A program made the translations under genes and the position numbers. Below are positions 3 through 49,168 of a stretch of 64,000 nt of DNA, piece after piece; position 1 is the first letter of the stretch, and each line of letters begins with the position of its first letter. The notes beneath the pieces are model-generated. The model saw only the letters and a program-made list of their open reading frames with translations. It was not told where the DNA came from and did no database searches. The stretch lies in the sequence record OZ346201.1, one strand, 5' to 3'. This DNA is from a phage.

Positions 3-1718
3 CAGACTGAAAGTACCTGTATTGTTGCAGATAACAACTGTTGTATTAACCGTTTAGTGTCAAGAACATATGGAGGTATGGCTGGGTGCATTTGGGAAAC
101 AGTTGACAAGTATGACCATTTCGGTATTGGGTTTGATGATCACTATGAGATGAGAAACACCAAGCTTTGGTTCAGAATGTCAATAACCAACGCCAGCAAC
201 TTCTCCACTCCTGAAAAGATGATTATGACTGTAGACCTTGTTGATGGCACAATCATCTATGTTCCTTTAGCTCAATATGCTGTCAGCATCTCAGAGGATA
301 AAAATGTTGCAGAAATTCATATTGATTTTGAGGACTGCGTCGGGATGGACCAGAACAACAACATGATGGGTGTTGATCCTCGGCAGGTGAGAAGGATTTT
401 AATACCACTTATGCCTAAAGACTGGGTAAGTAATAGCACAGATCCAAGAACGGAAAATGTAGAGTGTGAGTTGCGCCTAGATCTGCTTCAGCCAGACACA
501 GGCTGGAAAATGATGCAACTTAATAATATCCAGGTGAGAGAGCACGACGTTGGGATCTGCACCGCATATGACGATATGTGGAACGTGTCCCCTTTAAGGG
601 TGTTGAACAATATCAAGCGTCTGGGCTATACCGGAACCATAAACCATTATGTTGGTATGAGTCATTATTATGACTACACATGGTCAGGAACCCAATGGTC
701 TATAAACAGAACAGGAGCGCTAAACGCTGCAGCTTATAAATGGCATGATGATTTTATGTACAATGCCAAACGACATAACTTCGACGTTATGCAATCTGTA
801 AGTTTTGAGCTTTTCAGCGATGCCTGCCCGTTGGAATGGACCCAAAGAGACTGGAACGATAACTACGCTAAAACAGGGTATACACCTTGTAGCTACCTCC
901 TGTCTCCAACCATTGAAGAGGGTATGAATTTCCTTACTGCAGTATTTAAGAATTTTGCATCAGCCGCTATGAGAAACAACCTGCCAGTGATTATGCAGGT
1001 TGGTGAACCGTGGTGGTGGTACAATACCGATACTCGTAGACCTTGTATTTATGATTACCCTACAAAACAGGCGTTTTATGATGAGACAGGCGAGTATGCA
1101 TTAGATATTGGGACTATTGACGATCCTAAAACTGGCGGTGTTTACGATAAGTATGTAGCATTTTGTCGTGGTAAGCTTGGCGCTCGTATTGCGGCTATTT
1201 CAAAGGCAATAAAGGCACACGCTGCATCAGCTCAGATGACAGCTCTGCTGTTTTTCCCAACCATTATGGAAACCGAGCTTACGCAAAAGCTTAACCTTGC
1301 TGACCAATATAAAAAGGAAGCAGGTGCTCTTGATTTCTTCTGCACCGAGTGCTACGATTGGGTGATGCAGGGAGGTATTGAAAAGGCAAAAGAGTCTGTA
1401 AACATACCTATCGTTAAGTTAGGTTGGCAACCGTCTGAAATACAATACCTTGCAGGGTTCGTTCCTAGTAAAGAGCTTGCTCCGGTATATGGTTACGACC
1501 CAACCAGGAATTACCAAGAATTTTTATGGAGATGTATTTGCGGAAACATGGCAACTATAGAGTATAGATATCCTGAGGTAAAACAGTATGTGTGGGCATA
1601 CCCGCAAGTAATGTCTGACAGCATCACTGTTACCGCTAGAGATTCTACCGTGCTTCATATGGGGCAGGTTGCTCTGAAAGGGTATGTAGAAGATGTTGTC
1701 CCGCCAGACTTCTCATAA
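3..1718 (+). CDS. hypothetical virion-associated protein (5' end cut by window edge)
   Basis: Frame is open back to position 3 with no upstream stop; lies directly upstream of tail-fibre genes; no catalytic motif recognised. Confidence 0.55.
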   Translation, partial: QTESTCIVADNNCCINRLVSRTYGGMAGCIWETVDKYDHFGIGFDDHYEMRNTKLWFRMSITNASNFSTPEKMIMTVDLVDGTIIYVPLAQYAVSISEDKNVAEIHIDFEDCVGMDQNNNMMGVDPRQVRRILIPLMPKDWVSNSTDPRTENVECELRLDLLQPDTGWKMMQLNNIQVREHDVGICTAYDDMWNVSPLRVLNNIKRLGYTGTINHYVGMSHYYDYTWSGTQWSINRTGALNAAAYKWHDDFMYNAKRHNFDVMQSVSFELFSDACPLEWTQRDWNDNYAKTGYTPCSYLLSPTIEEGMNFLTAVFKNFASAAMRNNLPVIMQVGEPWWWYNTDTRRPCIYDYPTKQAFYDETGEYALDIGTIDDPKTGGVYDKYVAFCRGKLGARIAAISKAIKAHAASAQMTALLFFPTIMETELTQKLNLADQYKKEAGALDFFCTECYDWVMQGGIEKAKESVNIPIVKLGWQPSEIQYLAGFVPSKELAPVYGYDPTRNYQEFLWRCICGNMATIEYRYPEVKQYVWAYPQVMSDSITVTARDSTVLHMGQVALKGYVEDVVPPDFS

Positions 1719-1730
1719 TCAGGAGATAAA

Positions 1731-2771
1731 ATGTCAAAACCTAGTTTTCCATTAGAGATTTGGGCAGAGGAGGATCAGGTTCTGCCTAACACCCACAGAC
1801 AGAACAGGCTACGCCCGATTGATGATTTGTGGAGAAAAGGTTGGGATCTTGGTCAAAAGCCCTCATGTGAAGAACTTAACTATATTTTCAATATGCTCGG
1901 GACTTGGGCAAAATACATCGCTGACGAGCAGATCCCCGCTCAAGAAGGCCGTTATCTGGTACGTGATAATAACTTGAGTGATCTTTTGAACATTCCTGTT
2001 GCCCGTAGAAACCTTGGGATTATTACTAAGGAAGAGGCAGACGCCAGGTATGTAAAAGTTACAGGTGATACAATGACAGGCCCATTGGGTTTGCAACGTA
2101 TCAACTTTAAAGCTGCCGAGTCAGATAAGGCTTGGATAGAGACAACTATTGGCCCAGATAAGACAACTCTCGACTTTGGGTTAAGTGATAATACCGGGTC
2201 GTTTGATGATGGTGGTACATCTACAGTGGATGCGTTCCGTTGGAGATTCCAGCCAACTCAGCCGGATATTAATCCAGAGTTCACTTTGATGTACCTTAAC
2301 GCGATCACGGCTAACCGTGCGCTGTTGAAAGTGGTAGGCAATGTTGAAGTTGTCGATAACATGAGGTGCAATAACCTTACTATCAGCAATACAGCGACAT
2401 TCACCAACTGTAATGTGGCTAGTCAGTTGACGGCTGGGTCAGTGTATGTTAATGGTGGTGCAAGTTGTGACAGTATGGTTGTAAGAAGCCAGCACTGTGT
2501 TGTCGGTAACAGAAATGTGGTTCGCTCTGTGAACGGAGTGACGGCTAACGGTAACGGTGATGTAACGATCACTATCCCGCAGACAGGTGTGCAAGACATC
2601 AGAATCGGTGCAAGACTTGTGGACGGAGTTTCTGAATCTCCAATCCGCAACGGCTACGTTGTCACAGGCTGGCATTTCGGTGACAAAAAAGAGATGCGTG
2701 GTTCAACCTACTGGGCAGGACCTTTACAAAAACTTGTAAATGGTCAATGGATCACTGTTAATTATGCATAG
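1731..2771 (+). CDS. tail fibre protein, paralog 1
   Basis: SD AGGAGA upstream of ATG; shares N-terminus (P-x-[ED]-IWA..QD-VL-NT), central RWRFQP / NAITANRA and C-terminal QKLVNGQWIT-x-YA with the ORF at 3786..4829; central region divergent. Confidence 0.75.
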   Translation: MSKPSFPLEIWAEEDQVLPNTHRQNRLRPIDDLWRKGWDLGQKPSCEELNYIFNMLGTWAKYIADEQIPAQEGRYLVRDNNLSDLLNIPVARRNLGIITKEEADARYVKVTGDTMTGPLGLQRINFKAAESDKAWIETTIGPDKTTLDFGLSDNTGSFDDGGTSTVDAFRWRFQPTQPDINPEFTLMYLNAITANRALLKVVGNVEVVDNMRCNNLTISNTATFTNCNVASQLTAGSVYVNGGASCDSMVVRSQHCVVGNRNVVRSVNGVTANGNGDVTITIPQTGVQDIRIGARLVDGVSESPIRNGYVVTGWHFGDKKEMRGSTYWAGPLQKLVNGQWITVNYA

Positions 2772-2785
2772 ATCGGAGGACTAGC

Positions 2786-3370
2786 ATGAAAATACTTCAA
2801 GAGTTTAAACTTTACCAACCGGGATCTGGCGAATACCGCACCAACAAGGAAACCAAGGAGCTGACCCCTCAAGAGGTTGAGGATTACACAGCATACACTG
2901 GGTATTTTTTACGTAATGATGATGGCGATTGGTATGTGCAGTCACGAACATTACGACAAGAAAATCCGGGGTGTATCTTCCTACTTGTTGACGAGAAGGG
3001 AATTCTTAAGACATCTACAGAAGAACCTGATGCCTTATGGCCTGCTCCAGGTCTTCGTGTGGTTATCGCCAAAAAAGAAGAGGTACCAGAAAACATTATG
3101 CTTCACCACGACGCTTTGCGTTTAGTTGGTGATGAATTTGTCACAGACAATGAATTCTTTGTTCAACAGGCAGAGGGTGTCATAGAGACAGAACTTGCTT
3201 GGGCTACTGCTAGAATTGGTGCCTATCAAGACATGATTGACCTTGAATATGATCTTACTGATGACCAGAAACGTAACATCAGAGATTTGAAAATGTACAG
3301 GGTAAAACTTCTTGAAATAGATACATCTAAAGCCCCTGACATTTTCTTCCCGGAGCGACCTACCCTCTAA
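2786..3370 (+). CDS. hypothetical protein (tail-fibre associated)
   Basis: SD GGAGGA 6 nt before ATG; sits between the two fibre paralogs. Confidence 0.55.
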   Translation: MKILQEFKLYQPGSGEYRTNKETKELTPQEVEDYTAYTGYFLRNDDGDWYVQSRTLRQENPGCIFLLVDEKGILKTSTEEPDALWPAPGLRVVIAKKEEVPENIMLHHDALRLVGDEFVTDNEFFVQQAEGVIETELAWATARIGAYQDMIDLEYDLTDDQKRNIRDLKMYRVKLLEIDTSKAPDIFFPERPTL

Positions 3371-3381
3371 GAGGAGGTGTT

Positions 3382-3696
3382 GTGGAGTTGGATTTGGCGG
3401 CATTGTACGGTATCTGCATGGGTACCGTTGTCCCGATCTGTGTATGGGCTTTCAACCAGTGGCACACCAAATGGAAAGGCATTTCCAAGAGGTTGGATGA
3501 ACTGGAGAAAGACCTCATCTTAGTGAAAAACAGTATGGTTACAAAAGATAAACTTGATTCCGTTATCGAGACCCGGTTAAGTAAGCTAGAGGCCGATATT
3601 AACGACCTTAAGCAGGATGTCAGGACAGATGTCTCCGGTATCCGAGCTGATGTACAAAAGATTTTGCACATGCTCGTAGAGCATAGTAAAAGGTAA
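3382..3696 (+). CDS. membrane-anchored coiled-coil protein
   Basis: GTG start preceded by GAGGAGG; hydrophobic N-terminal segment followed by heptad-like charged region. Confidence 0.5.
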   Translation: MELDLAALYGICMGTVVPICVWAFNQWHTKWKGISKRLDELEKDLILVKNSMVTKDKLDSVIETRLSKLEADINDLKQDVRTDVSGIRADVQKILHMLVEHSKR

Positions 3697-3785
3697 ACAA
3701 AGGTCAGAACGGAAAGGACTCTGTTCTTGCATTTTGTTCCCTAAAGTGTTAAAATAGTCCTAAGGAATTTTCTCAGGAGAACGTG

Positions 3786-4829
3786 ATGACTAAACCAGTT
3801 ATCCCTCTTGATATTTGGGCCAATCAGGATGTTGTGCTTGAAAATACGGGAGAGTTGAATAAGTCTCAACCAAAAAAAGAAGAGAGATTGAAAGGTTGGG
3901 ATATGACACAAAGAGTGGCATGTGAAGTTGTTAACTTTGAACTTCACATGCTTTCTGCGTGGTTGAAGCATTTAACAGAAGATGTTGTCCCAGGATGGGA
4001 TAATAGATTCTTAAGGGTCACTAATAATCTAGCAGACGTTCCAGACAAAGCTGCTGCACGTCAAGTTCTCAATGTATACTCACCTGAAGAAATGGACGAT
4101 CTATATGTTGACAAGTCTGGAGACATAATGACTCAGACTCAAACTTTAGGTCTTCAAAGAATCGAGTTTGCATCTGCGTCAACAGACAGTGCGGCAATAT
4201 ATACCACCATAACTCCAGACAAGACGACGATGGATTTCTGGATTATGGACAACATCGGTGGTGCTGACGGCACAGACCTTGATGATCCTTCTCACCAAAT
4301 AGATGGGTTCCGTTGGAGATTTCAACCTTCTGGTGGGCAGCCTGTGTTTTCAGCTATGAAGCTCAATGCTATAACTGCCAACCGTGCAAGACTGGCTATC
4401 CAAGGAAATCTTGAATGCAACGATGCAAAAAGTTCCTCTGCAAATGCCAATGCGGTCACGATACCAAGAGCCACTGTTAATGGACAACAATCCTGCGGAA
4501 GCGCTCAAATAGGTGGAAGAGTTGATTGTAACGATGAAACCGTCAGGGGCCAATATGCAACAGTTGGTGGAAGAAACGTGGTCCGCAGGGTAAATGGTAA
4601 CGGCGCAGACAGTAGTGGTAACCTTACTATTCCTATGCCTAGCAGAGGGGTTGATGATGTAAGGATAGCAAACCGTTTCAAAACCACCTACAGAGAGTCA
4701 AGAGTCTACCCTGGACATGTGATGTGCTCTGGTAACTACGCTTATAAACACCCTTATCAAGGTGATTACTGGACAGGTGCTATCCAAAAACTTGTAAATG
4801 GTCAATGGATCACTATATCTTATGCTTAA
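3786..4829 (+). CDS. tail fibre protein, paralog 2
   Basis: SD AGGAGA; conserved N- and C-terminal ends shared with 1731..2771, different central domain; ATG at 3786 preferred over GTG at 3783. Confidence 0.75.
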   Translation: MTKPVIPLDIWANQDVVLENTGELNKSQPKKEERLKGWDMTQRVACEVVNFELHMLSAWLKHLTEDVVPGWDNRFLRVTNNLADVPDKAAARQVLNVYSPEEMDDLYVDKSGDIMTQTQTLGLQRIEFASASTDSAAIYTTITPDKTTMDFWIMDNIGGADGTDLDDPSHQIDGFRWRFQPSGGQPVFSAMKLNAITANRARLAIQGNLECNDAKSSSANANAVTIPRATVNGQQSCGSAQIGGRVDCNDETVRGQYATVGGRNVVRRVNGNGADSSGNLTIPMPSRGVDDVRIANRFKTTYRESRVYPGHVMCSGNYAYKHPYQGDYWTGAIQKLVNGQWITISYA

Positions 4830-4840
4830 AAAGAGGGTAA

Positions 4841-5107
4841 ATGAAACTAACTCAGTTTTTATGGGGACTGGTTGCGGCATCTGATGACCCTACGAAAGTA
4901 TCCCAAACTAAGCTATGGTCGAACATAGGCATGGCGGTGATGACTGGGGTGTTTATTCATATGGGGTATAATGATACGCTTCCTGAATGGTATGCGTGGA
5001 TATACGCGCCTTCAGTAGCTTGCCCCCAGCTTATTAGCAAATTCATCTCGCTCCGGTGGGGTTGCCAGCACCCTGACCACGTTAAAAACGAAGAGCAAAA
5101 AGCTTAA
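4841..5107 (+). CDS. small membrane protein (holin-like candidate, unproven)
   Basis: 88 aa with hydrophobic segments, SD GAGGG; embedded in fibre module. Confidence 0.45.
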   Translation: MKLTQFLWGLVAASDDPTKVSQTKLWSNIGMAVMTGVFIHMGYNDTLPEWYAWIYAPSVACPQLISKFISLRWGCQHPDHVKNEEQKA

Positions 5108-5116
5108 GGAGAAATC

Positions 5117-6862
5117 ATGGCGCAAGACATGACAAGCTTTGAGCAGGCGGTAGATCAAGTAATTGTTGATTCTGAACGTTTGCACCTGATTGTCAACGGT
5201 AACGCTGTGGATGAAGTTGTCGTAGAGGATGGGACCACCATCCCTACGGTACGAAAAGCCATGCTTGACACCCTTTATTTTAAAACGCCACCGATCCCTT
5301 GGGCGTATGGTGCATCCACAACAGTTTTTAACCAGCTGTACGAGTTTAAAGGGGACACAGGCCCTCAGTGGTGGTACGCTCCCGCAGCATCAAAATCTAA
5401 CCCGGTTAGAATGCCAGCAGATCCTTCACAATCTCCAAACTGGAGATTATATACCGATTCTGCAGTAATGGCAAAATACTACGCAAAACTTAACAGTCCG
5501 AGGTTCGAAGGTGACCCGCGAGTACCTACGCCTCCAATGGACGACAAATCCGAGTCTATAGCAAACACAGAGTTTGTTGTTGACTATGTGGATAGCATAT
5601 TTGAAGCCATGGAGGGAATGAAAGTTACTGTAGGGTCTTTGGTGGTAAAAGGTCTTACAGAACTTGCTAACACTATAGTTGGTGGCACACTCACCTTACA
5701 TGGGCCTGTTAATGGAGCAGATTCTACTGCACGCTTCAGGAACCTAATCCTCACGGCAAATACTTCTACACTTACTTTTGCGTGGAGTGATCCTAAGCAT
5801 GCAGACTGGAGAAGCACAGAGCTGCAACCTCATGAAGTGTCCACCCACAGGGTTATAGCTGACACTATAACTTCTGGGAAACCAGTGGCTAATAATAACG
5901 ATGTGCATTTTGATGGTCTAGGTAATAACTTTTTTGACTACGTGTACATTCGTGGTAATGCCATGAAGGCAGCAACCGAACCGACATTGCAGGTAGATGG
6001 AACCACCAGGGTTAAGAACCTTGAGGTGACAGGCACTGTTACAGGGATAACATACTCTGTCGATGGCACCATGATCTACCCTAGCTATATTGAAAGCACG
6101 GGTGATGCATTGATAAATGGCGATTTGGAGGTTGGCGGGTCTGTAGTTATTCGAGGTACAGCCTCTATCCAAAATATAGCTCTGAATACTCTAAGAGTCA
6201 ATGAGCGTGCAACTTTTGAAGGAGAAGGGCTTACAGCCAATAAAGGTACAATTACCGAGCTGACCACCACCACTTTAACTGCAACAACTGCAAACTCTGA
6301 AAACTGCAACATTACCAGAAACTTGCAGGTAAATGGAGATGTTAGTTTAAACGCCGCAGGGACTGGCACCACCTACCTTCACAATCTTGAAATATCCGGC
6401 ACAGTGACCGGATGGCTGCCAGACTTCTCTAATGTCAACTTTGTCTGTAATGGCATTAACTCCAGTGGTAAGATAACCACCTCTCAAGAAATTGAGGCTG
6501 GTAAAACCATCACTGCCCCTACTTTCCACGCAGGAAAGGTAGATTTTGACTTAGAGGAGGTTGACGCGTCCAGTGGGACATGGACACCTAACGGGCAGGC
6601 CAGTATGTATGTTGTCCACGCTAAAGGGGATTTTACAATAGGTCAGTGGCCTGGGACATCAGCGGAAGATAAACCTTATCCATTCACTGCAGTTATCTAT
6701 GTCATTCAGGATGCTGTAGGTCACAACGTGACTTTGCACGATAAGTATGCTATCCTGTCGGCAACACCTGTTATTAACAACAGGGCTAACAGTGTTACCT
6801 TGCTGCAATTAACGTATTGTGGTGTTGGTGATATTGTAGACGTAGTAATTGCACAACGTTAA
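5117..6862 (+). CDS. tail fibre / tail spike-like protein
   Basis: 581 aa, Thr/Gly/Asn-rich repetitive beta-type segments, SD AAGGAGA; followed by terminator. Confidence 0.65.
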   Translation: MAQDMTSFEQAVDQVIVDSERLHLIVNGNAVDEVVVEDGTTIPTVRKAMLDTLYFKTPPIPWAYGASTTVFNQLYEFKGDTGPQWWYAPAASKSNPVRMPADPSQSPNWRLYTDSAVMAKYYAKLNSPRFEGDPRVPTPPMDDKSESIANTEFVVDYVDSIFEAMEGMKVTVGSLVVKGLTELANTIVGGTLTLHGPVNGADSTARFRNLILTANTSTLTFAWSDPKHADWRSTELQPHEVSTHRVIADTITSGKPVANNNDVHFDGLGNNFFDYVYIRGNAMKAATEPTLQVDGTTRVKNLEVTGTVTGITYSVDGTMIYPSYIESTGDALINGDLEVGGSVVIRGTASIQNIALNTLRVNERATFEGEGLTANKGTITELTTTTLTATTANSENCNITRNLQVNGDVSLNAAGTGTTYLHNLEISGTVTGWLPDFSNVNFVCNGINSSGKITTSQEIEAGKTITAPTFHAGKVDFDLEEVDASSGTWTPNGQASMYVVHAKGDFTIGQWPGTSAEDKPYPFTAVIYVIQDAVGHNVTLHDKYAILSATPVINNRANSVTLLQLTYCGVGDIVDVVIAQR

Positions 6863-9900: not shown

Positions 9901-12547
9901 ATCCATGTCCATGCAAATTCCGGTAACAAACGGATACAAACGTGTTGTGATGATCATTAAGTGCGACCTGATAGGTAAACAAGTTCTTGCAGAAAACGGG
10001 ACATCCACACATCCTTTTGAGATCGCTCTGCACTATCAGTTTGCTGACTCACCTTTTGCAGGGGATAAGAGAATATCTGATACAGACGCACAGCGTTGTA
10101 AGAAAGTATTGTTGGGTGCAGGTTGGTGGTGGTATGAGTTTGATTTAACAGACAAATTCACCGACACGTCTAAAGTTGTAACAGGACTTCGTCTAGACCT
10201 TGGCGAGAACATGCACAAAGCTGTTTGTGATGGCACCTATGGTGACCCTACAATATACCTAAAATATGTTTCTTTTGAGCATCCGGAAGATGTTGTCTAC
10301 GGTCCAAAACTGAGATTGTTTGGCAGCTGGATTGCAAAAGATAGGGTAGGCATGGGTAAGAAGGTAAGAGGGCTCTTGGTTGATGCAGGAACAGAAGACA
10401 TGCTGGTTAATGCAGTGTGGCCTGAATTACCTGGGACTCAGTGGGACAACTCAGCCAAATCTATAAACTGGTTTAACATTCATAGGGCCATGTGGACCAC
10501 TAACTGCTACTTGTGGAGAGAGCTTAACGATCAGGCCTTTGGATTCAGCGATGGTAGAAGGATGGCGATCATTTGCTGGACAACACTGCAAAGATGTTAT
10601 GACCATGACTATGAGATTGGGGGCAGGGCATGGAAAAATATCAGGGATAGAATCATAACCAATTTTGCAGACGACAACGGTGGTGGAGCACATAACTTTG
10701 GCACAAGCCGACTCATCCATTTGAACGGATCCTCAGCCTACAAGAAAGAAGGTTACTCTGGGTCTATGATCGAGTGGGGTCTGGTGAAAGATGCTCGCGT
10801 ATTGATGGGCCAGCAACTTGCTGCCGCAATAGGTCCCAGCGCAGTGCAGTCGGTTAAACCAGCGTGGTTCGATATTCCATTGTGGTCACCCGGAACACCG
10901 GGAACTGCTGCAATCAACCCTACCACTGGGGATCTAGAAATCTCCTGGGAGGACTTGAAGCAGGTCGGTGGTTGGGACAAAACAGGGTACCAGGTTCAGT
11001 GGTGGAGAGCTGATGGATCTTTAGCTGCTGATGAGTTTGTTAAGGACAATTTCTACACTATGTCCTCTGCAAAAGCACAGCAATTATTTGGTCAGGCAAC
11101 TCCGTCAACGATCACCATGTCTATGTGCTGTAAAGACAACAGGACTGGAGCTTTGGGGCCAAGGGTTGCTAAAGTTTTCTCAGGTATTAAATGGAATCTA
11201 CCTGTCCAAAGTATTTCATGGAAGCAAATAGGTGATAACAAGCTGCTGGTTACCCCTGCCTGTCAGTTCAACGCAACTCTTAACGTTGATCCTGCTGTTG
11301 CGGCAAACTCAGCTAAAGCTTCTGACTTCTCTGTGTCTAACACTGCTATGGCAGATGTGAGGAAGATTGACACGCTGAACGCCAGAATTACCTGTAAAAA
11401 CACTTATGGCACATTCCAGATCATCAACAACTTCACAGATGCTGATTCTAAGGTAGTGAGGACAGCAAGCCAGACTTTGAGTTTAGGAACTCTGGCCTAT
11501 GCGGCCCTAATCACTGAACAGTCGGCAACACTCCAAGGAGGTGGTGTAGGCAAGTCCATTACAACACCTGTGTGGAAGCCAAATGAGTGGGTTGTGTTTG
11601 ATTTGACTGTGGACTTCTCCAGCGATAATAACTGGACATGGGTAAGGAATTGTTTGTCACAGTTGATGGGCGGTCCAAGCTCCGTTAGTGATAGTCACGA
11701 CTCTACTGACCCGAGTGTGTTCCAGGTAGGTAAAACTCACCCAGAGACTGGAGAAACGTTGCCTGACAGGAAGTATGCTTTGGTTTGCATCTCTTACGGG
11801 AAGGCAGATGTCACCTTCTCAGGGACACACACTTATAACGGAACCTACAACTTCTCAAGGAAGTATAGTCTCAAAGCAGGGAACATTATAGACGAGGTTG
11901 GTGTGCTGTATAATCCGGGCAACGGCATAGGGATTGTTGGTGGTAAACTGCAGATGCAGGAACCTTCTATTACCCCTTCCAACGTATCCGGGATTAGAAA
12001 GACTTGGGAAAGTAGTAATACCAACATTGCAACAGTGGATGCCACCACAGGACTGGTAACATTTAAAGCTACTGGGAATGTCACCATAAAGTTTGTAGTT
12101 ACAGATGATGCAGGGCGCAAAACGTCTTCAACATCTTTTACTGTCAAACAGATGGCACCACAGTGGAGAATGTGGATAGGTACAGCAACAAACGGGGCAT
12201 ACCCTAATCCGGCAGGTACTTCTGGTATGAAGACTTTCTCTACAAGCAAACCGATGGAGTACGGCAGCGGTCCTAAGGTAGGGCAGATGGTGTACTTTGG
12301 TGCGTATATTCCTGAAATTATAGGGCTTCCGAGAAGTCAGCTTCAGTTGCTGTTTGGGGCTGGTGTTGACGATCTTGCCACTTTCGGGTATAGCGACAAC
12401 ATCGAGGCTGCAAGGAGTTCAGGATGGGTAGGGTTCAGAATGGAGTCTGGAAAGGAAGGCAGGATTCTAGGGACAGCCTCTATAGGTGTTATGTTCCCTG
12501 GTGACCAGCAGTATCGTCTAGAAGCCTACGCAACCTTTTCTCGTTAA
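6911..12547 (+). CDS. large tail fibre / receptor-binding structural protein with Ig-like domain
   Basis: 1878-aa ORF; C-terminal region has a bacterial Ig-like (Big_2-type) stretch (..IATVDATTGLVTFKATGNVTIKFVVTDDAGR..); no polymerase motifs. Confidence 0.7.
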   Translation: MLPIPLLKLGRHFLDKRGGIKELAVLSYPIDNSDGTSNTVSYVNSLAILFDDGQLNITGYNKFGECRTGDRNPINYPSETAWNVDHVWRADRAFVIRTFDNQFFYIGCTAGLIGSTAAGGNDVCVNEWTPLPEQIVKGLHLDTHPERLIEVMGGINNTVWVIAEAEGTGILKLYGSGNNTYGSLHVDKNQHATPVKIGETSENPETGPWKNPSINCEVHDNSVIFGGPRGFWIAGYDFLRNNSRNDLVWPPVQITRNDLRGIPADEEWKGFMCGPNGAIIATQRMHKPNDQQLVNVFYGQDVWGDDTWRSLNITYTHEVIMARGYGTSGIFFNNGTKQYRGFSRNLCNDIGAQSANNSPRANFIHYQALATAKYVEQRLPVSWTESVYFQGIHREGFLGTFTVVNGKLWWSGIPRGSFAGSNNLFGGRLNSQGFTEIPENWYKNVPVDSWGIEDIFDVNGVSNVSNIYIGDTVKMKLKPQPEGATFIIDKIELVNAAGTVVTDANYQFSTNWNHGGANEVVVTQYNRNINRRGLYSIKITYHDKHGTGRTYTTRTLNWNTIVPAYPSNGKWHTVGRNKQFHVNDTVYFGLNGTQPAVEGDTSYMVRLHRMDAGSVTYDVTQEIYDQRRATYDNIVKTQALWEFNPNGKGGKMLQVNEQNGTSLTVHEHPDPWPDPGKPRPGARTLKIVSHDAGYFGIRWEATVRYVDGTTNNIGITLGGTSEDNSLKIAYTPRGISIDSMDVVRNGYGDVNVKVTLGEHLGGERIIMYTFDHDPRTNGTYANQAWSYLINAPEPNTKEFYYGMKRDVCKKTGTHDWIAICVKDERTAWDEPVNRWFIGIPTRSDKYVAEYIVCMGGTNLNMCWNEDVNKYSDYDYMRDYSCNLWFNQTTGYPPRQARVNPAIFTDTQVFLTKQANEVQTFKNKYAPNKWFYNCYGAFFWGPGELPGGGSCLNEATYASDYIMGQVKKYKIIPGPETLGNAVDPYIIMTALRSNMDGTSMSMQIPVTNGYKRVVMIIKCDLIGKQVLAENGTSTHPFEIALHYQFADSPFAGDKRISDTDAQRCKKVLLGAGWWWYEFDLTDKFTDTSKVVTGLRLDLGENMHKAVCDGTYGDPTIYLKYVSFEHPEDVVYGPKLRLFGSWIAKDRVGMGKKVRGLLVDAGTEDMLVNAVWPELPGTQWDNSAKSINWFNIHRAMWTTNCYLWRELNDQAFGFSDGRRMAIICWTTLQRCYDHDYEIGGRAWKNIRDRIITNFADDNGGGAHNFGTSRLIHLNGSSAYKKEGYSGSMIEWGLVKDARVLMGQQLAAAIGPSAVQSVKPAWFDIPLWSPGTPGTAAINPTTGDLEISWEDLKQVGGWDKTGYQVQWWRADGSLAADEFVKDNFYTMSSAKAQQLFGQATPSTITMSMCCKDNRTGALGPRVAKVFSGIKWNLPVQSISWKQIGDNKLLVTPACQFNATLNVDPAVAANSAKASDFSVSNTAMADVRKIDTLNARITCKNTYGTFQIINNFTDADSKVVRTASQTLSLGTLAYAALITEQSATLQGGGVGKSITTPVWKPNEWVVFDLTVDFSSDNNWTWVRNCLSQLMGGPSSVSDSHDSTDPSVFQVGKTHPETGETLPDRKYALVCISYGKADVTFSGTHTYNGTYNFSRKYSLKAGNIIDEVGVLYNPGNGIGIVGGKLQMQEPSITPSNVSGIRKTWESSNTNIATVDATTGLVTFKATGNVTIKFVVTDDAGRKTSSTSFTVKQMAPQWRMWIGTATNGAYPNPAGTSGMKTFSTSKPMEYGSGPKVGQMVYFGAYIPEIIGLPRSQLQLLFGAGVDDLATFGYSDNIEAARSSGWVGFRMESGKEGRILGTASIGVMFPGDQQYRLEAYATFSR

Positions 12548-16481: not shown

Positions 16482-16745
16482 TCAGAAACCCTCTAAAAAG
16501 CTCTTGTAGAAAACAATCTCAGTATCCACACCAGTCACAATCTTGTCGTTCCTGATTTCATCGGTAAGATAGGTGTCAAAACGCAGAACCTGTGTGGTGT
16601 TGTCACACATCCACTCAGCTGTGACCATTGCGAAAATCTTAGCATCTTCATTATCTGGTGTGAATGTTACCACCTCACCGCACTTAAACTTTTCGATAGG
16701 CTGAGTGTTAGCTTTCGGTTCTGCGATAGTGATTTTTGTGGTCAT
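16482..16745 (-). CDS. small protein, tandem paralog family member
   Basis: 87 aa; same length and pattern as the two following ORFs; 1-nt stop/start overlap. Confidence 0.6.
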   Translation of the reverse strand: MTTKITIAEPKANTQPIEKFKCGEVVTFTPDNEDAKIFAMVTAEWMCDNTTQVLRFDTYLTDEIRNDKIVTGVDTEIVFYKSFLEGF

Positions 16746-17008
16746 TATTCTCCTCCTTCTTTTGAATAGCTTGTCTCTCCAAGGATGGTAATTTTGGTGT
16801 CAAGCTCTGTAACTTTCATGTTTGGCGGCAGATCGTACAACTCATTATTTTCTAAATCGAACCCCCACACACAATGTTCTCCTGTTTTGACAATCATAAC
16901 TATGTTTTGAATGCCGTCTCCGTCGCAACTTACCACGGTCCCACACGGAAAACTGTCTGCACGCTTTTTGTTCTTCACCTTAGAATTGAATACAATGCTG
17001 GTAGCCAT
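16745..17008 (-). CDS. small protein, tandem paralog family member
   Basis: 87 aa; MAT.. N-terminus, G-T-VV core, TELD..ITILGE C-terminal motif. Confidence 0.6.
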   Translation of the reverse strand: MATSIVFNSKVKNKKRADSFPCGTVVSCDGDGIQNIVMIVKTGEHCVWGFDLENNELYDLPPNMKVTELDTKITILGETSYSKEGGE

Positions 17009-17271
17009 TATTGTTCCTCCACCATAACTTCGCCAAGAATTTCTATGCAGGCATCCATTTCTGTAACAACCAAACTGTGAGGTAGTTCTACAAACACCTT
17101 TCTGAACAGGTCAAATACCCCAACATATATGTTTGCAGGATGTGATTTTACAACAAGTGCTGTATTCACATCCCCAAGTTCATCAACAAACATCACCACA
17201 GTGCCCGGAGCTACTGAGGACAGATACTTCTTAGTTTTACGGTTTGATGCAAATTTTAACTCTGTTGCCAT
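17008..17271 (-). CDS. small protein, tandem paralog family member
   Basis: 87 aa; MATELKF.., ..TEMDACIEILGE..; head-to-tail with 16745..17008. Confidence 0.6.
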   Translation of the reverse strand: MATELKFASNRKTKKYLSSVAPGTVVMFVDELGDVNTALVVKSHPANIYVGVFDLFRKVFVELPHSLVVTEMDACIEILGEVMVEEQ

Positions 17272-17286: not shown

Positions 17287-18768
17287 TTACTTAGCGTACT
17301 CGATTAATTCCACAGTTTTCCCAAAGCTCGGGATATAATTTTTATTATACCCCTCAGTGAGGACCCATAGAGTATCGTACTTTTTCCACTTGTTGTCAAC
17401 AACCTTTTGTTCAAAGTTATGCTCAAAGTATAGGTCGGTCAGGACGATGACATCTTTTGCATTAGGTATGTTGGCATCCAGATACTCGAACACGCAAGCA
17501 GCTGTTGTGCCCCATGTTGAGTGGACCTCATAGTTGATCATCTCGTCTATGTTGCCGCGAGTGTATACTTTAACCTCTCCAACCTCAGTTGACCAACAGA
17601 ACATTGTAACCTTAAACTCTTTATACAGATTGCACAATCCGGTGATTTCATTGAACATTTTCTTTAAAGTTCTTTGAGAGATCGAGCCAGAAACGTCTAA
17701 AGCCACCACAATATCTATAGTGTTTTCCGGATTACGACCAGGAACAATAACGTGCTGGTTCTTGTTTATAGCCCCAACTTTTCGCATTGTGCTGGTCAAA
17801 GACCCAGATCGGCGACCAGGTTTTCTGTAGGTCAGTTCGGCCTTTCTTTTAGACAACATACGTTGCTTAATGATGTCTATATAGTTGATTACAGGCTTAC
17901 CTCTGTTCTTGACAAACTCACGCACCGCCTCAGGGCAACGGCCTCCGGACGCTTGCATTGCTGCCTCCAGCATATCACCAGAGTCCTGCATGGCCTGATC
18001 TTTATCAGATTGGCTGATTACAGGTTGTGGCTGATCATACCCCATAGCCTTTCCAAGATTATCACTGGTGCCACCGTTCCCACTCATGTGATCATCGGTT
18101 TGTCGCTTATCACTTTGAGAGTTCTCACCTTTACCGTTCTTACTTTTACCGTTATTCTGATCTCTTTGCTTATCAAGAACTGCATAAACGTTCTCAGCAA
18201 TCCATCCATGAAACTTCATGTCGCAGTAGCAGCTGGCTAAGAAGCCAAAAGGCTTACCTTTCATGAACGTAGTGCTTTTCCCCTTCGGGAAGAAAACACA
18301 AGGAGGTTTGCTAAAGTCAACCACAAGGCCTGTGTTGATAACGTGATCACAAGCAATATTGAACAGTTCCGGCTCAAAGCTTTTACCACGGACTAGGTGA
18401 TCACAGATAATATGCCCCACCTCATGTGACAGAAGGAAGGCCACCTCTTTCACAGATTTTGGGGAATAGAAAACTTCAGCCATCTCAAACTGCTCGTCAG
18501 TTAGAGAAGCCTTAAGAATAGCCTTGCGTTCATCAGCCAATCCCATAATGAACTCAGGACTGTAATAGATGCGTTTATGGTCGGTTGCCATGGTGGAGCA
18601 CCATGTGTGGTTTTCTACGAACTGCAACCCTGACAGTAGTGTGCCATAAAACGGCAGCTTTTCAAGGAGATACATACGTGCAGCCTGCAACATTCTCAGG
18701 GCATCATCTTTCTGCGAGGCAATGATTTCTGAACTTCTGCTATCCATTAAAACTCCAGAAGGGGCCAT
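17287..18768 (-). CDS. vWA-domain protein with N-terminal HExxH metallopeptidase-like domain
   Basis: HEVGH motif (..AFLLSHEVGHIICDH..) in N-terminal half; MIDAS-like VVALDVSGSI (DxSxS) in C-terminal half. Confidence 0.75.
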   Translation of the reverse strand: MAPSGVLMDSRSSEIIASQKDDALRMLQAARMYLLEKLPFYGTLLSGLQFVENHTWCSTMATDHKRIYYSPEFIMGLADERKAILKASLTDEQFEMAEVFYSPKSVKEVAFLLSHEVGHIICDHLVRGKSFEPELFNIACDHVINTGLVVDFSKPPCVFFPKGKSTTFMKGKPFGFLASCYCDMKFHGWIAENVYAVLDKQRDQNNGKSKNGKGENSQSDKRQTDDHMSGNGGTSDNLGKAMGYDQPQPVISQSDKDQAMQDSGDMLEAAMQASGGRCPEAVREFVKNRGKPVINYIDIIKQRMLSKRKAELTYRKPGRRSGSLTSTMRKVGAINKNQHVIVPGRNPENTIDIVVALDVSGSISQRTLKKMFNEITGLCNLYKEFKVTMFCWSTEVGEVKVYTRGNIDEMINYEVHSTWGTTAACVFEYLDANIPNAKDVIVLTDLYFEHNFEQKVVDNKWKKYDTLWVLTEGYNKNYIPSFGKTVELIEYAK

Positions 18769-18780
18769 TGGCCCCTGTCA

Positions 18781-19575
18781 TTATTTAACGTGTTTGAAAA
18801 TACCTGCCAACTCGGTCATTGTCATGCGGGTGGTCTTCATAAGATCTGTCATAGCTTTCTCCATAATTGGAGATACTACCATAAAGTTTCCTTTAGTGAA
18901 ACCTTTATTCCAGTCGGTCACCAACAGGGGTTTAAGTCCAGCTCCAAGACGTTCACCAGTTAAAGCACAGCATTTGCGAATATACGAACTCTTAAATTGG
19001 CTGAACGACAGATCAACTTTCATACCTACATCGTAGAACGTTTGACAATAGAAAGTGTAAGCTTTGGCAATCTCAACATCATCAGGTAGTGCAGGAACCT
19101 CTTCTGTAAGCTCCTCTTCGACCTCCTGAGTCTCTTTTTCCTCTTCATGCACCTGTTGCGTCATTTCTTCAATCTCTTCTGTGATAGGCTCGTTTACAAT
19201 GTCGGAAATGTGCTTCTTGGGTGCACGATAAGTAACTTTAGACATCGGTAGCATATCTTCCTCCTCTTCTTCGTCAAAGAGTGCTAGTTTATCCTCTTCC
19301 GTTCCATATTGCAAGATGAAATCTTCAAAAGTATAATCACCTTTCAATTTCTCCATACGCTCTTCGCTCAGGTGGAGCATCATCTGCTGGACAATTTTTC
19401 GATCAGTTTCGTCTTTAATCAAGACTGCAGTCTTTTTATCTACCAGACAGTCCTTTAGAGAGTTGCATCTCAATCCCACCACACAACAGTTATCAACCGC
19501 ATAAGGACCTTCATCATCTATCCGCTCCAGAGATGGGTAGAAAGGATTCCCCAGCCCGTTTTCATCTGTGTGCAT
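18781..19575 (-). CDS. hypothetical acidic protein
   Basis: 264 aa with Glu-rich centre; first 23 codons lie inside the left arm of the 254-bp palindrome; has an internal LPMSKVTYRAP segment duplicated at the start of the ORF at 20791. Confidence 0.5.
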   Translation of the reverse strand: MHTDENGLGNPFYPSLERIDDEGPYAVDNCCVVGLRCNSLKDCLVDKKTAVLIKDETDRKIVQQMMLHLSEERMEKLKGDYTFEDFILQYGTEEDKLALFDEEEEEDMLPMSKVTYRAPKKHISDIVNEPITEEIEEMTQQVHEEEKETQEVEEELTEEVPALPDDVEIAKAYTFYCQTFYDVGMKVDLSFSQFKSSYIRKCCALTGERLGAGLKPLLVTDWNKGFTKGNFMVVSPIMEKAMTDLMKTTRMTMTELAGIFKHVK

Positions 19576-19760
19576 GTCAAAAGGTATAAGGGTATAGTCG
19601 CATACTCCATCTCCTAAAAGTTTTTTACCAAATATTTGGTAAAAAACTTTTAGGAGATGGAGTATGCGACTATACCCTTATACCTTTTGACATGCACACA
19701 GATGAAAACGGGCTGGGGAATCCTTTCTACCCATCTCTGGAGCGGATAGATGATGAAGGT
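19507..19760. repeat. perfect 254-bp palindrome (two 127-bp inverted arms, no spacer)
   Basis: Right arm 19634-19760 is the exact reverse complement of left arm 19507-19633, checked block by block; centre ACCAAAT|ATTTGGT. Confidence 0.9.
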
Positions 19761-20502
19761 TATTGAGCGTAGATTGGTATCTGGGTCTGATAAGTGGACA
19801 TATTTAGATAATGAAGGACACACCTATTCCAATGGGTATGTCGATATAAAAGTAGAATACGCGGTATCATACCGCCGGAGCGGTTCTGTAACTTTCAACT
19901 TCTCTGGAGGTTTTCGATCTCTGGCTACCTCACCTTTTGTTTCCTCAGAGGAGAAGTATGAGCTGCCATTTCTTTGGATGATGGCTAACGCGACAGGAAA
20001 AACCCCCGTTAGCATCCGAGTAAAATACAACTACAACGGATCTAGTAAGATCTATGCCGAAAGTGTCTCAGCAAGTTTTTATTTTGTGATGGGGGATGGA
20101 ATCCTCAAACATATAAAGATGTGCGATATGCATGATGTTATAAATGAAGTGACTGATAAGAATGTTCTAGTGAAAGACCTCAACAATTTTTATACACCCG
20201 GAGACTATTACGTCAGCCGTCCACTGTGCATCTTTAATGCCGCACACCCTCTAGGTGAGTATTTGATCGCCAATAGCGATATTGCCAATAACCGCTTCGA
20301 GGTAGCAAGAGTTCAGAATGAGGTATTGACATCTTGCAAGAGCGGTGATAAGTTTACCGAAGAAGAGATGGGTGTTTTAGAAATGATGGGATATAAGTGT
20401 AGCCTTTGGGTAGATGAGGTGTTCAATGATTGCATCTATGGACAGGATATTTACCCATTAAAGAAGTATACTGATTCCAGTTTAATTTACGCGGAGATTT
20501 GA
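19750..20502 (+). CDS. hypothetical protein
   Basis: 250-aa ORF; start codon lies in the last 11 nt of the palindrome right arm. Confidence 0.55.
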   Translation: MMKVIERRLVSGSDKWTYLDNEGHTYSNGYVDIKVEYAVSYRRSGSVTFNFSGGFRSLATSPFVSSEEKYELPFLWMMANATGKTPVSIRVKYNYNGSSKIYAESVSASFYFVMGDGILKHIKMCDMHDVINEVTDKNVLVKDLNNFYTPGDYYVSRPLCIFNAAHPLGEYLIANSDIANNRFEVARVQNEVLTSCKSGDKFTEEEMGVLEMMGYKCSLWVDEVFNDCIYGQDIYPLKKYTDSSLIYAEI

Positions 20503-20777
20503 CTATGATGAAGTCATGTGGTAGTGTATATTATGTTGGTGAGAATGTTCAGGCAGATAGTGTGTGGAAATCCATTAAGTCCACCACCGATGATGCCTTT
20601 CTGAGCGGGTTATGTTTTCCCAGCCCAGGGGACACTCTCCCTTACCCTGGAGATTTTGTTGTCAACAAGATGGACGGTTATACCGTGTGCCTGATGGTTG
20701 AAAAAATCTTTTTAGACACTAGACACAATCACCGTCTTGTGTTAAAATTTCAAGAATGTAAAATGACAATTGCCTAA
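20499..20777 (+). CDS. hypothetical protein
   Basis: 92-aa ORF overlapping stop of upstream gene. Confidence 0.5.
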   Translation: MTMMKSCGSVYYVGENVQADSVWKSIKSTTDDAFLSGLCFPSPGDTLPYPGDFVVNKMDGYTVCLMVEKIFLDTRHNHRLVLKFQECKMTIA

Positions 20778-20790
20778 GGAGACCTTGCCG

Positions 20791-21147
20791 ATGTCTAAAG
20801 TTACTTATCGTGCAGCTATTTACTGCAATGAACACCCAATCAATAATGATGGTCACTGCCTTTTTAAAGAAAATCAATTGGGCTGTATTGTCCTCCCTGA
20901 TGAAGGGGAAGGTTATCTGATTGCGTTGACAGGGTTTGAACCTGAAGCTCTGGAAGCCAATCTTGACTACCTGGTAGAGGAGGGTGCTGCAGACCTGGTT
21001 GCCAATGGCCTCTCCATAAGCCTTGACGAAGTGGAGCGCTTCATGGGCAATTACCGTGTAGTGCGTGAGTTTACTATCGAGGTGGAAACTCCCGAGTGGG
21101 GTAGCCATGAAACTAATGCCGAAGAAAAAGAAGAGGAGGTAGAATAA
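20791..21147 (+). CDS. hypothetical acidic protein
   Basis: ATG at 20791 with AAGGAGA 8 nt upstream preferred over track start 20770; N-terminus MSKVTYRA is encoded by a 27-bp segment also present inverted at 19222-19248. Confidence 0.5.
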   Translation: MSKVTYRAAIYCNEHPINNDGHCLFKENQLGCIVLPDEGEGYLIALTGFEPEALEANLDYLVEEGAADLVANGLSISLDEVERFMGNYRVVREFTIEVETPEWGSHETNAEEKEEEVE

Positions 21148-21404
21148 TGAAAGTGCAGATCTTGACTAATGCCGAGAAGATGTTTATTGAAGATACACCT
21201 TTTGAAGCTGGTGAGCTACAGTTCGTTTATTTTGTTGACTTAGATAAGGTGTTTCCTGCACTGAATCTAGGTTTGGATGAAGTTCCTCATAAGGTTTTGT
21301 GCCAAGTTGTTCGTGCCTTAGCGGCAGAGGGGGAGTTCCACACCCTTCAAGATATCCAGACCTACGGGTATCTTGAACTACAACGAGAAGAAGAGGTGGA
21401 CTGA
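21147..21404 (+). CDS. hypothetical protein
   Basis: 85-aa ORF, ATGA-type overlap with upstream gene. Confidence 0.5.
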   Translation: MKVQILTNAEKMFIEDTPFEAGELQFVYFVDLDKVFPALNLGLDEVPHKVLCQVVRALAAEGEFHTLQDIQTYGYLELQREEEVD

Positions 21405-21406
21405 TA

Positions 21407-21787
21407 ATGGCTCAGTGGAAGACAACAGTTGACCTTCATGATCAGTGGTTAGGACGCATCACTGAAGACGGGAAGCTAGTGGAGTGGGACAATAAGCATG
21501 TTAGCGAGTTGGCAAGTATTGTGGCTGGCAAGTTACGCTCCAAGTTCCCTGAACAACTGGATCCTGATAGTTCAAAGTTCGATCCTGAGTTAGAGGATGT
21601 TGTATACTACTTCGACACCGTTGATGACTACGACGCGTGGTTTGCAGCACGGGAGCTTTACCCACAAGGCTCTGCTATGCGCCAGATGGAAGAAGATTAT
21701 CCTCCGTGTGAGCAATTCAATAGTGCAATGACTTGCCTCTATGATTGGGCAGATAAGAACCTTGTCTGGATTCGGACTGCATTTTAG
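21407..21787 (+). CDS. hypothetical protein
   Basis: 126-aa ORF. Confidence 0.5.
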   Translation: MAQWKTTVDLHDQWLGRITEDGKLVEWDNKHVSELASIVAGKLRSKFPEQLDPDSSKFDPELEDVVYYFDTVDDYDAWFAARELYPQGSAMRQMEEDYPPCEQFNSAMTCLYDWADKNLVWIRTAF

Positions 21788-21831
21788 TGGGCAGGAATGG
21801 CGGCAAGGATGCTGCTTAAGGAGTAGTAGAG

Positions 21832-22101
21832 ATGTTATACCAGCAATATGAACTTCGTGCAGAAAAAGAGTTAAATTTTGACAAAGATATTCACAGATAT
21901 TATTATGGGAAAGTTAGAGGGCAAGCAAGAAAGTGTACTCCAACACTCTTTTATGCCAGCAGACGACTAGCGCCAGAAGAGGCAACAGCAGAAAGGGTTG
22001 CGTACAACTGGAGAGTCACGTATGATATTGACAGATTCGATGTGATATCTGTTTTGGAAAACTTTGAAAACACTTACACACAAGTAGAGGACTTTTACTA
22101 A
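21832..22101 (+). CDS. hypothetical protein
   Basis: 89-aa ORF. Confidence 0.5.
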   Translation: MLYQQYELRAEKELNFDKDIHRYYYGKVRGQARKCTPTLFYASRRLAPEEATAERVAYNWRVTYDIDRFDVISVLENFENTYTQVEDFY

Positions 22102-23285
22102 TGTCAAGAAACGTATTCGAAAGTGGTCAAATCACTGTCCGTGAGTTGCCAGCTATTATTCAGTTTGCCCAACGTCATAGCCGATCTGTCCTAATTTTGG
22201 GACCAATGGGTGTGGGTAAAAGCCAGGTGATGAAGCAGATCGCTGATAATATGTTCGGTGAGCGAGATGACAACCTTGTTGACGTGCGACTGTCAGATAA
22301 AGATCCTGCCGACTTATCTGGGCTACCTATCCCTGTAGAAGCGGATGGAACTACACGTACAGTGTTTGCAATTCCAGAATTTTGGCCTGCGGATCCTGAC
22401 TGGAGCGGAATTATCTTTCTGGATGAGCTCACTCATGCAGATAACTACCTGCAAAAGGTTGCAATGCAAATTATGCTTGACCACAAGTGCGGCACCTATG
22501 CATTCCCTAAGGGTTCTGTTTTTGTGGCTGCGGGTAACCGTTCTACAGATGGTGCGGTTCTTTCGGCGCTCGAAGCCCCTCTGGCTAACCGTTTTATCAT
22601 TGTAGAGGTTACAAGCAATGCAGAGGTGTTTATTGAGGACTACGCATTCCTCAACGGGGTTCACTCCTCTGTAATTGGGTATCTGAAAAGAGTTCCATCA
22701 GCTATTGATAATTATGAGGCTATGGCTGAGATTAATTGTCCATCTTTTGCCACACCACGATCTTGGGTTGCTGCATCTGACATCTTGCACGATTTTGACA
22801 GCGGTATTATTTCTGACGCTATGGCCCGTGTTCTTCTACAAGGTGCTATTGGTCACACTGCAGCGGTAGAGATCTGGACTTACCACACCAAGAAACGTAA
22901 TTTACCGGAAATCGGTCGGATTATGGCAGGTGGCTGCAAAGAATACGTAGGTCCTAAGCAGCCAGACATTTTGTGGATTCTTGGATCTGAAGGTTGTATC
23001 GCTATTCGCAATATGATGGAAAATGCAAGTATCTCCGACGAAGATCTTGTTAGCTGTGTGGCAAACTTCCTCGATTTCCTTTGGGAAAATTTCAAGGACG
23101 AGAACCGAGATTTTGTATTCTCAGTCTTTATGGCGATGATGAAACCTAACGCCTTAGGAAATGCCTTGCTTATCGGTAAAGGGCGTGACAAGATTGTTGC
23201 TCAGTTGATCAAAGCATATCCAAACCTGATGAAGATTGTAAAAGAGTTTGGTGAAGAGTTTAGCGCCATTTTGGCTAAAGCTTAA
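22101..23285 (+). CDS. MoxR/CobS-like AAA+ ATPase
   Basis: Walker A GPMGVGKSQ, Walker B IIFLDELTHAD, MoxR-type PLANRF segment. Confidence 0.8.
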   Translation: MSRNVFESGQITVRELPAIIQFAQRHSRSVLILGPMGVGKSQVMKQIADNMFGERDDNLVDVRLSDKDPADLSGLPIPVEADGTTRTVFAIPEFWPADPDWSGIIFLDELTHADNYLQKVAMQIMLDHKCGTYAFPKGSVFVAAGNRSTDGAVLSALEAPLANRFIIVEVTSNAEVFIEDYAFLNGVHSSVIGYLKRVPSAIDNYEAMAEINCPSFATPRSWVAASDILHDFDSGIISDAMARVLLQGAIGHTAAVEIWTYHTKKRNLPEIGRIMAGGCKEYVGPKQPDILWILGSEGCIAIRNMMENASISDEDLVSCVANFLDFLWENFKDENRDFVFSVFMAMMKPNALGNALLIGKGRDKIVAQLIKAYPNLMKIVKEFGEEFSAILAKA

Positions 23286-45653: not shown

Positions 45654-45966
45654 TACTTGAAAATCCCTGGCATATCAAGTGTAAGGAGGATTTCTAAAAT
45701 GGATTTCCTCCTTTTGATATTTCACCGGGCCAGATATTTTAAAATTCTTAGAAAATCAGAAAATGGATCGAAAACTAAAATGGATTTTTCAAGACAGGCA
45801 CGATAAGATGTGCTGCTCATTCTATCGTTCGCACCGTACTTTAAGTCACTATTCCAGATTTTTCCGCACATACTCTCACCCTTCTACCAGAACTTTCCCA
45901 GCTTACCTCTGACCTTTTATAACAATAAGTCCATTATTATCAGAAAGTTTCGGCACATCTCTTTCG

Positions 45967-46140
45967 GTACTCGATCTGTTTTTCATTTCAAAGACCTGAT
46001 TTTCTGAAAATTTTTCTCGATAAATTTCTTAGTACTCGATCTGTTTTTCATTTCAAAGACCTGATTTTCTGAAAATTTTTCTCGATAAATTTCTTAGTAC
46101 TCGATCTGTTTTTCGTTTTCTGAATCGGATTTTCTGGAAA
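45967..46140. repeat. tandem 65-bp direct repeats (two exact copies plus degenerate copies), iteron-like
   Basis: Unit GTACTCGATCTGTTTTTCATTTCAAAGACCTGATTTTCTGAAAATTTTTCTCGATAAATTTCTTA at 45967-46031 and 46032-46096, then diverged copies with GATTTTCTGG / AAATGGATTTT submotifs. Confidence 0.85.
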
Positions 46141-46321
46141 TCGTTCCAGCTCTCGACCTGAAATTTTTGGGGACGAAATCGATTTTTCGTTTTCAGAAAT
46201 GGATTTTTAAAATTTCTATATGGGAATATTTTATGGGATACTGTTTTATAGGAAATTGTTACGGAGGGTAATTAGCATGCTAATTAAATTTATTAAATGC
46301 GAGGAGTTCTCATTTAGAATT

Positions 46322-48137: not shown

Positions 48138-48138
48138 A

Positions 48139-48185
48139 TTTATTTTTAGATGGCCTTGACTCCAGGGCCATCAATAAAGTAAATT
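48139..48185 (+). repeat. repeated intergenic element, copy 1 (promoter-like hairpin)
   Basis: TTATTTTTAGATGGCCTTGACTCCAGGGCCATCAATAAAGTAAATT; stem ATGGCC/GGCCAT with TTGACT in loop. Confidence 0.8.
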
Positions 48186-48758: not shown

Positions 48759-48760
48759 GA

Positions 48761-48805
48761 TTATTTTTAGATGGCCTTGACTCCAGGGCCATCAATAAAG
48801 TAAAC
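48761..48805 (+). repeat. repeated intergenic element, copy 2
   Basis: Identical core to copy 1: TTATTTTTAGATGGCCTTGACTCCAGGGCCATCAATAAAGTAAA. Confidence 0.8.
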
Positions 48806-48847
48806 TTTATACTGTTAACACTGAACTAATGCATAGGAGTTAAAACC

Positions 48848-49140: not shown

Positions 49141-49168
49141 TTATCAATACAATGAAAGGAGAAAGTAC

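Follow-up and report, generated by a model that had tools for sequence, protein, structure and literature searches.

A perfect 254-bp palindrome between divergent early genes of an rV5-like coliphage is probably an assembly artefact

The sequence analysed here, a 64,000-nucleotide stretch of record OZ346201.1 (the window), contains a perfect 254-bp palindrome at the point where leftward and rightward gene blocks diverge. The centre of this palindrome is probably (at odds that we put near 85%) no real junction, and would be an artefact of short-read assembly or finishing. The phage itself would have, or mostly have, the same intact divergent-gene region as its relatives.

Results

Anatomy of the palindrome

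The window derives from an rV5-like Vequintavirus coliphage and is 96-99.6% identical to PMBT16, A51.2, rV5_ev146, Murica, RudolfGeigy and about 115 others. Three relatives, brought into one register, served for BLAST searches against the window; positions denoted below as relative positions refer to them. The palindromic region features the following parts.

19507..19633, no strand: left arm, authentic phage sequence, collinear with relative positions 3508-3634
19633..19634, no strand: centre of symmetry, a blunt junction with 0 spacer and at most 1 nt of possible microhomology
19634..19760, no strand: right arm, found at this place in no relative

Base-by-base comparison of the arms revealed that the two are exact reverse complements of each other (127 + 127 nt), as the original prediction had stated: the spacer is absent, and pair 128 is the first mismatch. 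The 64-kb window contains zero N bases. A repeat search recovered the same pair of arms, extendable to 136 nt at 97%, and self-BLAST identified the palindrome as the longest inverted repeat of the window, the next being 27 nt long. In single-stranded form, the palindrome folds into a hairpin of -163 kcal/mol (shuffles, -26 ± 3.7; z = -37). As sequence text, a perfect palindrome of this kind is far beyond chance.

Gene coordinates on either side bear out the predicted location between divergent gene blocks, along with the vWA and MoxR genes said to flank it. The leftward block includes a vWA/DUF2201 metallopeptidase gene (17287-18768, minus strand), and the rightward block includes a MoxR ATPase gene (22101-23285, plus strand), rIIA/B and replication genes. 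Three tandem paralogous 87-aa genes (16482-17271, minus strand), also present in relatives, adjoin the vWA metallopeptidase gene.

Comparison with related phages

In BLAST alignments, window positions 17500-19634 correspond to relative positions 1501-3635 and window positions 19746-21800 to relative positions 4046-6099; the right arm aligns to the reverse complement of relative positions 3508-3635. The 415 bp at relative positions 3635-4049 are missing from the window; in their place, the 127 nt that precede them are repeated in inverted orientation, for a net change in length of -298 bp at the site. BLAST did not find the missing 415 bp elsewhere in the 64-kb window. This segment holds at least 62 codons of the 5' end of a 346-aa gene on the minus strand, about the first 50 codons of a 299-aa gene on the plus strand, and a 79-bp intergenic region with back-to-back promoter-like sites (in the relatives, TTGACA-17-TACGAT leftward and TTGACT-17-TATAGT rightward).

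An 851-bp probe revealed the intact region in one piece in 118 of 118 related records, at 87-100% identity, and both palindrome arms occur together in 0 of 117 related records. Relatives hold one arm only, an outcome that the original prediction had itself taken as the mark of an assembly artefact. Over about 49 kb, the window and RudolfGeigy are otherwise collinear, the palindrome being the only rearrangement. Strings spanning the centre and the outer junction had no match in IMG/VR, JGI metagenome contigs or GTDB genome contigs; the intact string, used as a positive control, matched an IMG/VR contig. The 401-bp palindrome region had no second occurrence in phage, plasmid and complete E. coli collections. 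Judging from these comparisons, the palindrome appears to be private to this sequence and to disrupt conserved genes.

The possibility that the palindrome is a functional element, whether a bidirectional origin, an operator between divergent operons, a protelomerase or hairpin-telomere site, or genuine inverted terminal repeats, is close to nil. The hairpin is extremely stable, and the site is found both at the divergence of the gene blocks and at the GC-skew minimum, but the skew minimum simply mirrors divergent transcription. Moreover, the palindrome is built from coding sequence of a truncated gene, and is conserved in 0 of 118 relatives (87-100% identity), which carry ordinary promoters there. 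Being private and absent from relatives, it is therefore excluded as a conserved origin, operator or telomere site. Where the original prediction envisaged a bidirectional origin or control element, relatives without the palindrome have two intact genes and a promoter region. The hairpin-telomere site that it also envisaged is likewise absent from relatives, and the annotation of the 50-kb relative region includes no protelomerase. Genomes of this genus are circularly permuted, as a PhageTerm analysis reported for one Vequintavirus, and SPAdes assembly at very high depth is common for them, with 2261x as one example (PMC8407724).

A few other features of the related records are worth recording. 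A stretch of about 129 nt (12167-12295) does not align to RudolfGeigy, which has 120 nt there; it is found where the long tail-fibre gene and the leftward early block converge. Some 16-17 "Campylobacter phage" records (MG065635, MG065647, MG065654-MG065666 and others), with Campylobacter jejuni given as host, are 93-99% identical to E. coli rV5-like phages over the region examined here, and their host labels look doubtful. Record CP057073.1 (137,565 bp, E. coli, cattle faeces), filed as a non-mobilisable "plasmid", matches the phage region at 92%. Its size is that of an rV5-like genome, and the entry is probably a misfiled phage genome.

Genes at the site

Three reading frames are shaped by the rearrangement.

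18781..19575, minus strand: 5'-truncated gene, Met83-Lys346 of a conserved 346-aa protein (relatives, PHROG 3118)
19692..19766, plus strand: mirrored mini-ORF MHTDENGLGNPFYPSLERIDDEGY*, 24 codons, a by-product of the duplication
19750..20502, plus strand: 5'-truncated copy of a conserved 299-aa gene, function unknown (PHROG 12338)

The 346-aa gene is annotated either as "anti-sigma factor" or as "anti-termination protein", and the N-terminal part of its product resembles Srd / sigma-70 decoy proteins. Compared with the relatives, the gene has lost at least 62 codons and its promoter. The ATG at 19575, read in the original prediction as a start codon within the left arm, corresponds to Met83, inside a protein that relatives encode at full length; the left arm consequently holds internal codons of a 5'-truncated gene. 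The mirrored, truncated frame expected in the right arm is present at 19692-19766, and is no gene.

In some records, the 299-aa gene bears the label "putative alpha 1-3 fucosyltransferase". About its first 50 codons are gone compared with relatives, and the apparent ATG at 19750 is a product of the junction, by which a GGAG-N7-ATG start was gained. Neither truncated gene matched any Pfam entry. An exact-sequence look-up returned no record for the junction-specific 250-aa product. The 264-aa product of the minus-strand gene has an exact match only in phage Alma, where the region is intact and the gene is called from an internal Met. In Alma (Escherichia phage vB_Eco_Alma, OV101294.1, 71552-78346), the Srd-like gene is called as the same 264 aa from Met83, and the region spans 698 nt versus 699 nt, suggesting a 1-nt indel or frameshift in the N-terminal part, or a sequencing error.

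The two junctions

The outer end of the right arm constitutes a second junction, J2, at which the inverted copy meets the true right flank.

19507..19516, plus strand: ACCTTCATCA, natural inverted repeat partner of TGATGAAGGT
19751..19760, plus strand: outer junction J2, 10-nt exact microhomology TGATGAAGGT between the inverted copy and the true right flank

The 10-mer TGATGAAGGT is common to the reverse complement of relative positions 3508-3517 and to the right flank at relative positions 4050-4059, and the match extends to 14/15 nt with a 1-nt bulge. In the intact genome, ACCTTCATCA (3508-3517) and TGATGAAGGT (4050-4059) are 543 nt apart. Per 50 kb, a relative has 55 inverted repeats that reach at least 10 nt with the copies no more than 1 kb apart (48 expected), and this pair is an ordinary chance repeat. 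The chance of finding at least 10 nt of homology at a random junction is about 1e-6; J2 was therefore made by base-pairing, either in a template switch or in the formation of a chimera. J2 lies in a natural inverted repeat of nearby opposite-strand sequence, as predicted for an inverted chimera of library preparation.

The centre looks different. Relatives read ...ACCAAAT/AGGAGG... at this position, with at most 1 nt of homology and no spacer, and no natural short palindrome with a half-length of at least 3, which might have seeded a hairpin, occurs there. The centre is thus not the usual product of polymerase fold-back, and its bluntness is as expected of a seam. When microhomology was assessed at both switch points of a template switch, J2 yielded 10 nt and the centre 1 nt with no spacer.

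These data bear on the reading in which the sequence is literally true and an in-vivo fold-back template switch rearranged this isolate. At the 10-nt inverted repeat, the nascent strand would have left relative position 4050 for the opposite template, copied 117 nt and switched back, deleting 415 bp and creating a perfect palindrome. The 10-nt microhomology at J2 is typical of template switching, lytic phages are tolerant of much change and the large ones can often dispense with early genes, and the truncated rightward gene has fortuitously gained its GGAG-N7-ATG start. We nevertheless regard this reading as improbable. It does not predict an arm length of exactly 127, and it leaves the centre without spacer or microhomology. 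Two genes kept in 118 of 118 relatives would be destroyed together with both promoters, and a second occurrence was found neither by DNA string in the collections searched nor by look-up of the junction-specific protein. A perfect AT-centred palindrome would also be a strong target for SbcCD in the host, perfect long palindromes being lethal SbcCD substrates in E. coli (PMC4245961).

Even less probable is an in-vitro amplification chimera, formed by phi29 MDA or PCR template switching, that contained both junctions and dominated the library. Strand-displacement amplification classically gives rise to inverted chimeras that combine short microhomology with an intervening deletion, which counts in favour of this origin. 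Against it, arms of 127 nt would again have to be fortuitous, an individual chimera is rarely the consensus of a high-titre phage preparation, and lysates seldom need MDA.

Arm length and the assembly graph

Each arm is exactly 127 nt long, which is the largest k-mer of SPAdes and metaSPAdes. SPAdes is documented to leave artefactual 127-bp repeats at the contig ends of phage genomes (PMC7372960, PMC12007190, PMC9331655), and SPAdes contigs abutting inverted repeats have been described with terminal inverted repeats (TIRs) of "at least 127" and "at least 77" bp (bioRxiv 10.1101/2025.10.13.682091). We estimate that an arm length of 127 would arise by coincidence in about 0.3-1% of cases for an arbitrary length, and in up to about 5% for any common k.

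A de Bruijn graph was simulated from an intact relative to which one chimeric molecule with J2 had been added. At k = 127, the left unitig ended with relative positions 3508-3634, a vertex with two incoming edges, and the chimeric unitig leading into the right flank began with the reverse complement of the same 127-mer. Blunt concatenation of the two unitigs reproduced window positions 19234-20033 with 0 mismatches in 800 nt for rV5_ev146 and with 2 or 3 for the other two relatives. Only k = 127 reproduced the window. As expected of a branching vertex, the right arm stops, on its outer side, at the final base of the microhomology, and its inner end is exactly 127 nt away; as expected of an artefact, the true sequence lost at the seam (415 bp) can be recovered from the relatives. 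The k = 127 model explains the arm length, the absent spacer and the centre without homology. It also explains why the arm end coincides with the microhomology, and the loss of the unique interior of the 669-nt edge that connects the flanks in the true path.

We infer the assembler, the origin of J2 and the joining step as follows. The read set would have contained J2, namely the reverse complement of relative position 3518 onwards joined via ACCTTCATCA/TGATGAAGGT to relative position 4060 onwards. J2 may have arisen as an opposite-strand chimera during library preparation or, less likely, as a real rearrangement in the phage stock. In a k = 127 graph, J2 would turn the 127-mer at relative positions 3508-3634 (X) into a branching vertex; the left-flank edge would end with X, the right-flank edge would start with the reverse complement of X, and the true 669-nt edge would become a separate small piece. 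The two ends of the long contig would then be the reverse complement of X and X itself, forming an artefactual inverted terminal repeat of length k. If these ends were joined bluntly and untrimmed, either while a circularly permuted genome was closed or re-oriented or while contigs were ordered against a reference, X would be followed by its reverse complement, the 415 unique bases would drop out, and the small true contig would be discarded. The left arm would thus be the terminal 127-mer of the assembly edge coming from the left, the right arm the first 127-mer of the edge leading into the right flank, and the centre (19633/19634) a contig-end to contig-end seam without read support.

The artefact explanation has its costs. 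An extra manual or scripted joining step must be assumed, because SPAdes itself makes no blunt edge joins, and J2 still requires real molecules. Furthermore, SPAdes faced with a low-coverage chimeric edge usually still walks the true path, which counts against this explanation. At thousands-fold depth, recurrent chimeric reads can survive graph cleaning, and contigs of circularly permuted genomes are rotated by finishers. Fragmentation and end repair are known to produce opposite-strand chimeric reads where short natural inverted repeats occur (PMC10908179).

One variant deserves separate mention. J2 might be a real in-vivo inverted duplication, with longer arms, a spacer or both, which the assembler collapsed to k-long stubs. 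As regards the centre, this is a sub-case of the artefact explanation, and the inverted repeat of the phage would not be the 254-bp palindrome seen here. We consider it a possibility with perhaps a minor share of the probability. It yields the same k = 127 signature and explains why the assembler left the true edge, and SPAdes contigs beside genuine inverted repeats do end in TIRs of exactly k (bioRxiv 10.1101/2025.10.13.682091). However, it needs a viable mutant in which two conserved genes are disrupted, and no similar structure is present in any relative.

Three further technical routes were rejected. The SPAdes gap closer, which has a minimal overlap of 10, was considered as the origin of the 10-nt overlap; for this, relative position 3508 would have to be a dead end, but the sequence is continuous there. 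A direct fold-back edge in the graph is ruled out by odd k, which forbids a self-complementary k-mer. Fold-back chimeras of long reads have arms on the kb scale, not of 127 nt.

The technical candidates in the original prediction, an assembly fold-back and inverted terminal repeats joined head-to-head, together come near to the origin indicated here, in which edge ends sharing the same 127-mer in opposite orientation would have been joined bluntly.

Other repeats in the window

A perfect 27-nt inverted repeat (19222-19248 / 20788-20814) flanks the divergent region and measures 29 nt in Murica and rV5_ev146. Both copies encode PMSKVTYRA, one inside the Srd-like gene (minus strand) and the other at the start of 20770-21147 (plus strand). 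This repeat is real, because it is conserved in relatives, and could either mediate inversion of the promoter segment or reflect a shared peptide or translation-start module.

A 50-nt element occurs four times between small genes (48136-48185, 48757-48806, 49092-49141 and 52495-52544). A TTGACT hexamer occupies the loop of its GC-rich stem-loop (GATGGCC...GGCCATC), and a TAAAGT-like -10 follows downstream. We take these elements to be similar to the "promoter-early stem-loop" cassettes that T4-type phages carry.

An AT-rich 65-nt tandem repeat (45957-46207) consists of two perfect and two degenerate copies. Its copy number seems to differ from that in RudolfGeigy, as alignments overlap, and both GC and AT skew change there. 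This repeat is a more plausible candidate for an iteron or origin than the palindrome.

Discussion

Among known systems, the structure described here is close to the k-length terminal repeat artefact of SPAdes and metaSPAdes. In both cases, the repeat has the length of the final k (127) and adjacent edges share one k-mer vertex; the documented artefact affects circularly permuted phage genomes assembled at high depth, and has to be removed manually. In contrast, documented copies are direct and occur at contig ends, whereas here the copies are inverted and internal, and 415 bp are lost. The inverted copies imply that an inverted junction was needed in the graph, and the internal position implies that the ends were joined untrimmed. 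The literature searched describes direct repeats and TIRs of length k at contig ends, but no internal k + k palindrome.

Contigs of linear plasmids with k-long TIRs ("at least 127 / 77 bp") similarly begin with the reverse complement of X and end with X. Their inverted repeat is genuine and terminal, whereas the relatives of the present phage exhibit only a 10-nt chance match. Opposite-strand chimeric reads, described as the PDSM model or as fragmentation-induced dual-strand artefacts, likewise involve a short natural inverted repeat, here with 10 nt exact (14/15 in the extended match) and the partner 543 nt away. Such reads normally occur at low frequency and cause false variant calls, whereas in the present case they would reshape the assembly graph. 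Palindromes produced by template switching and processed by SbcCD in E. coli and phage lambda share with this one the inverted duplication, the adjacent deletion, the outer microhomology and a size that is attacked by SbcCD. They differ in that here the centre has neither microhomology nor spacer, and the arm length equals an assembler parameter.

A screen that can be reused on phage and metagenome assemblies follows from these observations. Its first sign is an inverted or direct repeat of a standard k length (127, 99, 77 or 55), and its second is a pair of junctions, one with microhomology and one without. A spurious palindrome of this kind invites interpretation as an origin or telomere.

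If the palindrome were real, a fold-back template switch would have cost a viable rV5-like phage the 5' ends of two early genes that are conserved universally, along with the promoter region between them, and a perfect AT-centred 254-bp palindrome would be stably propagated in SbcCD-proficient E. coli. The phage would then neutralise or outrun the hairpin nucleases of the host, and both truncated genes would be dispensable. As biology, the palindrome is probably of no importance, and its value is one of quality control: the record would misreport two conserved early genes of this phage as truncated, and would lose 415 bp that include their divergent promoter pair.
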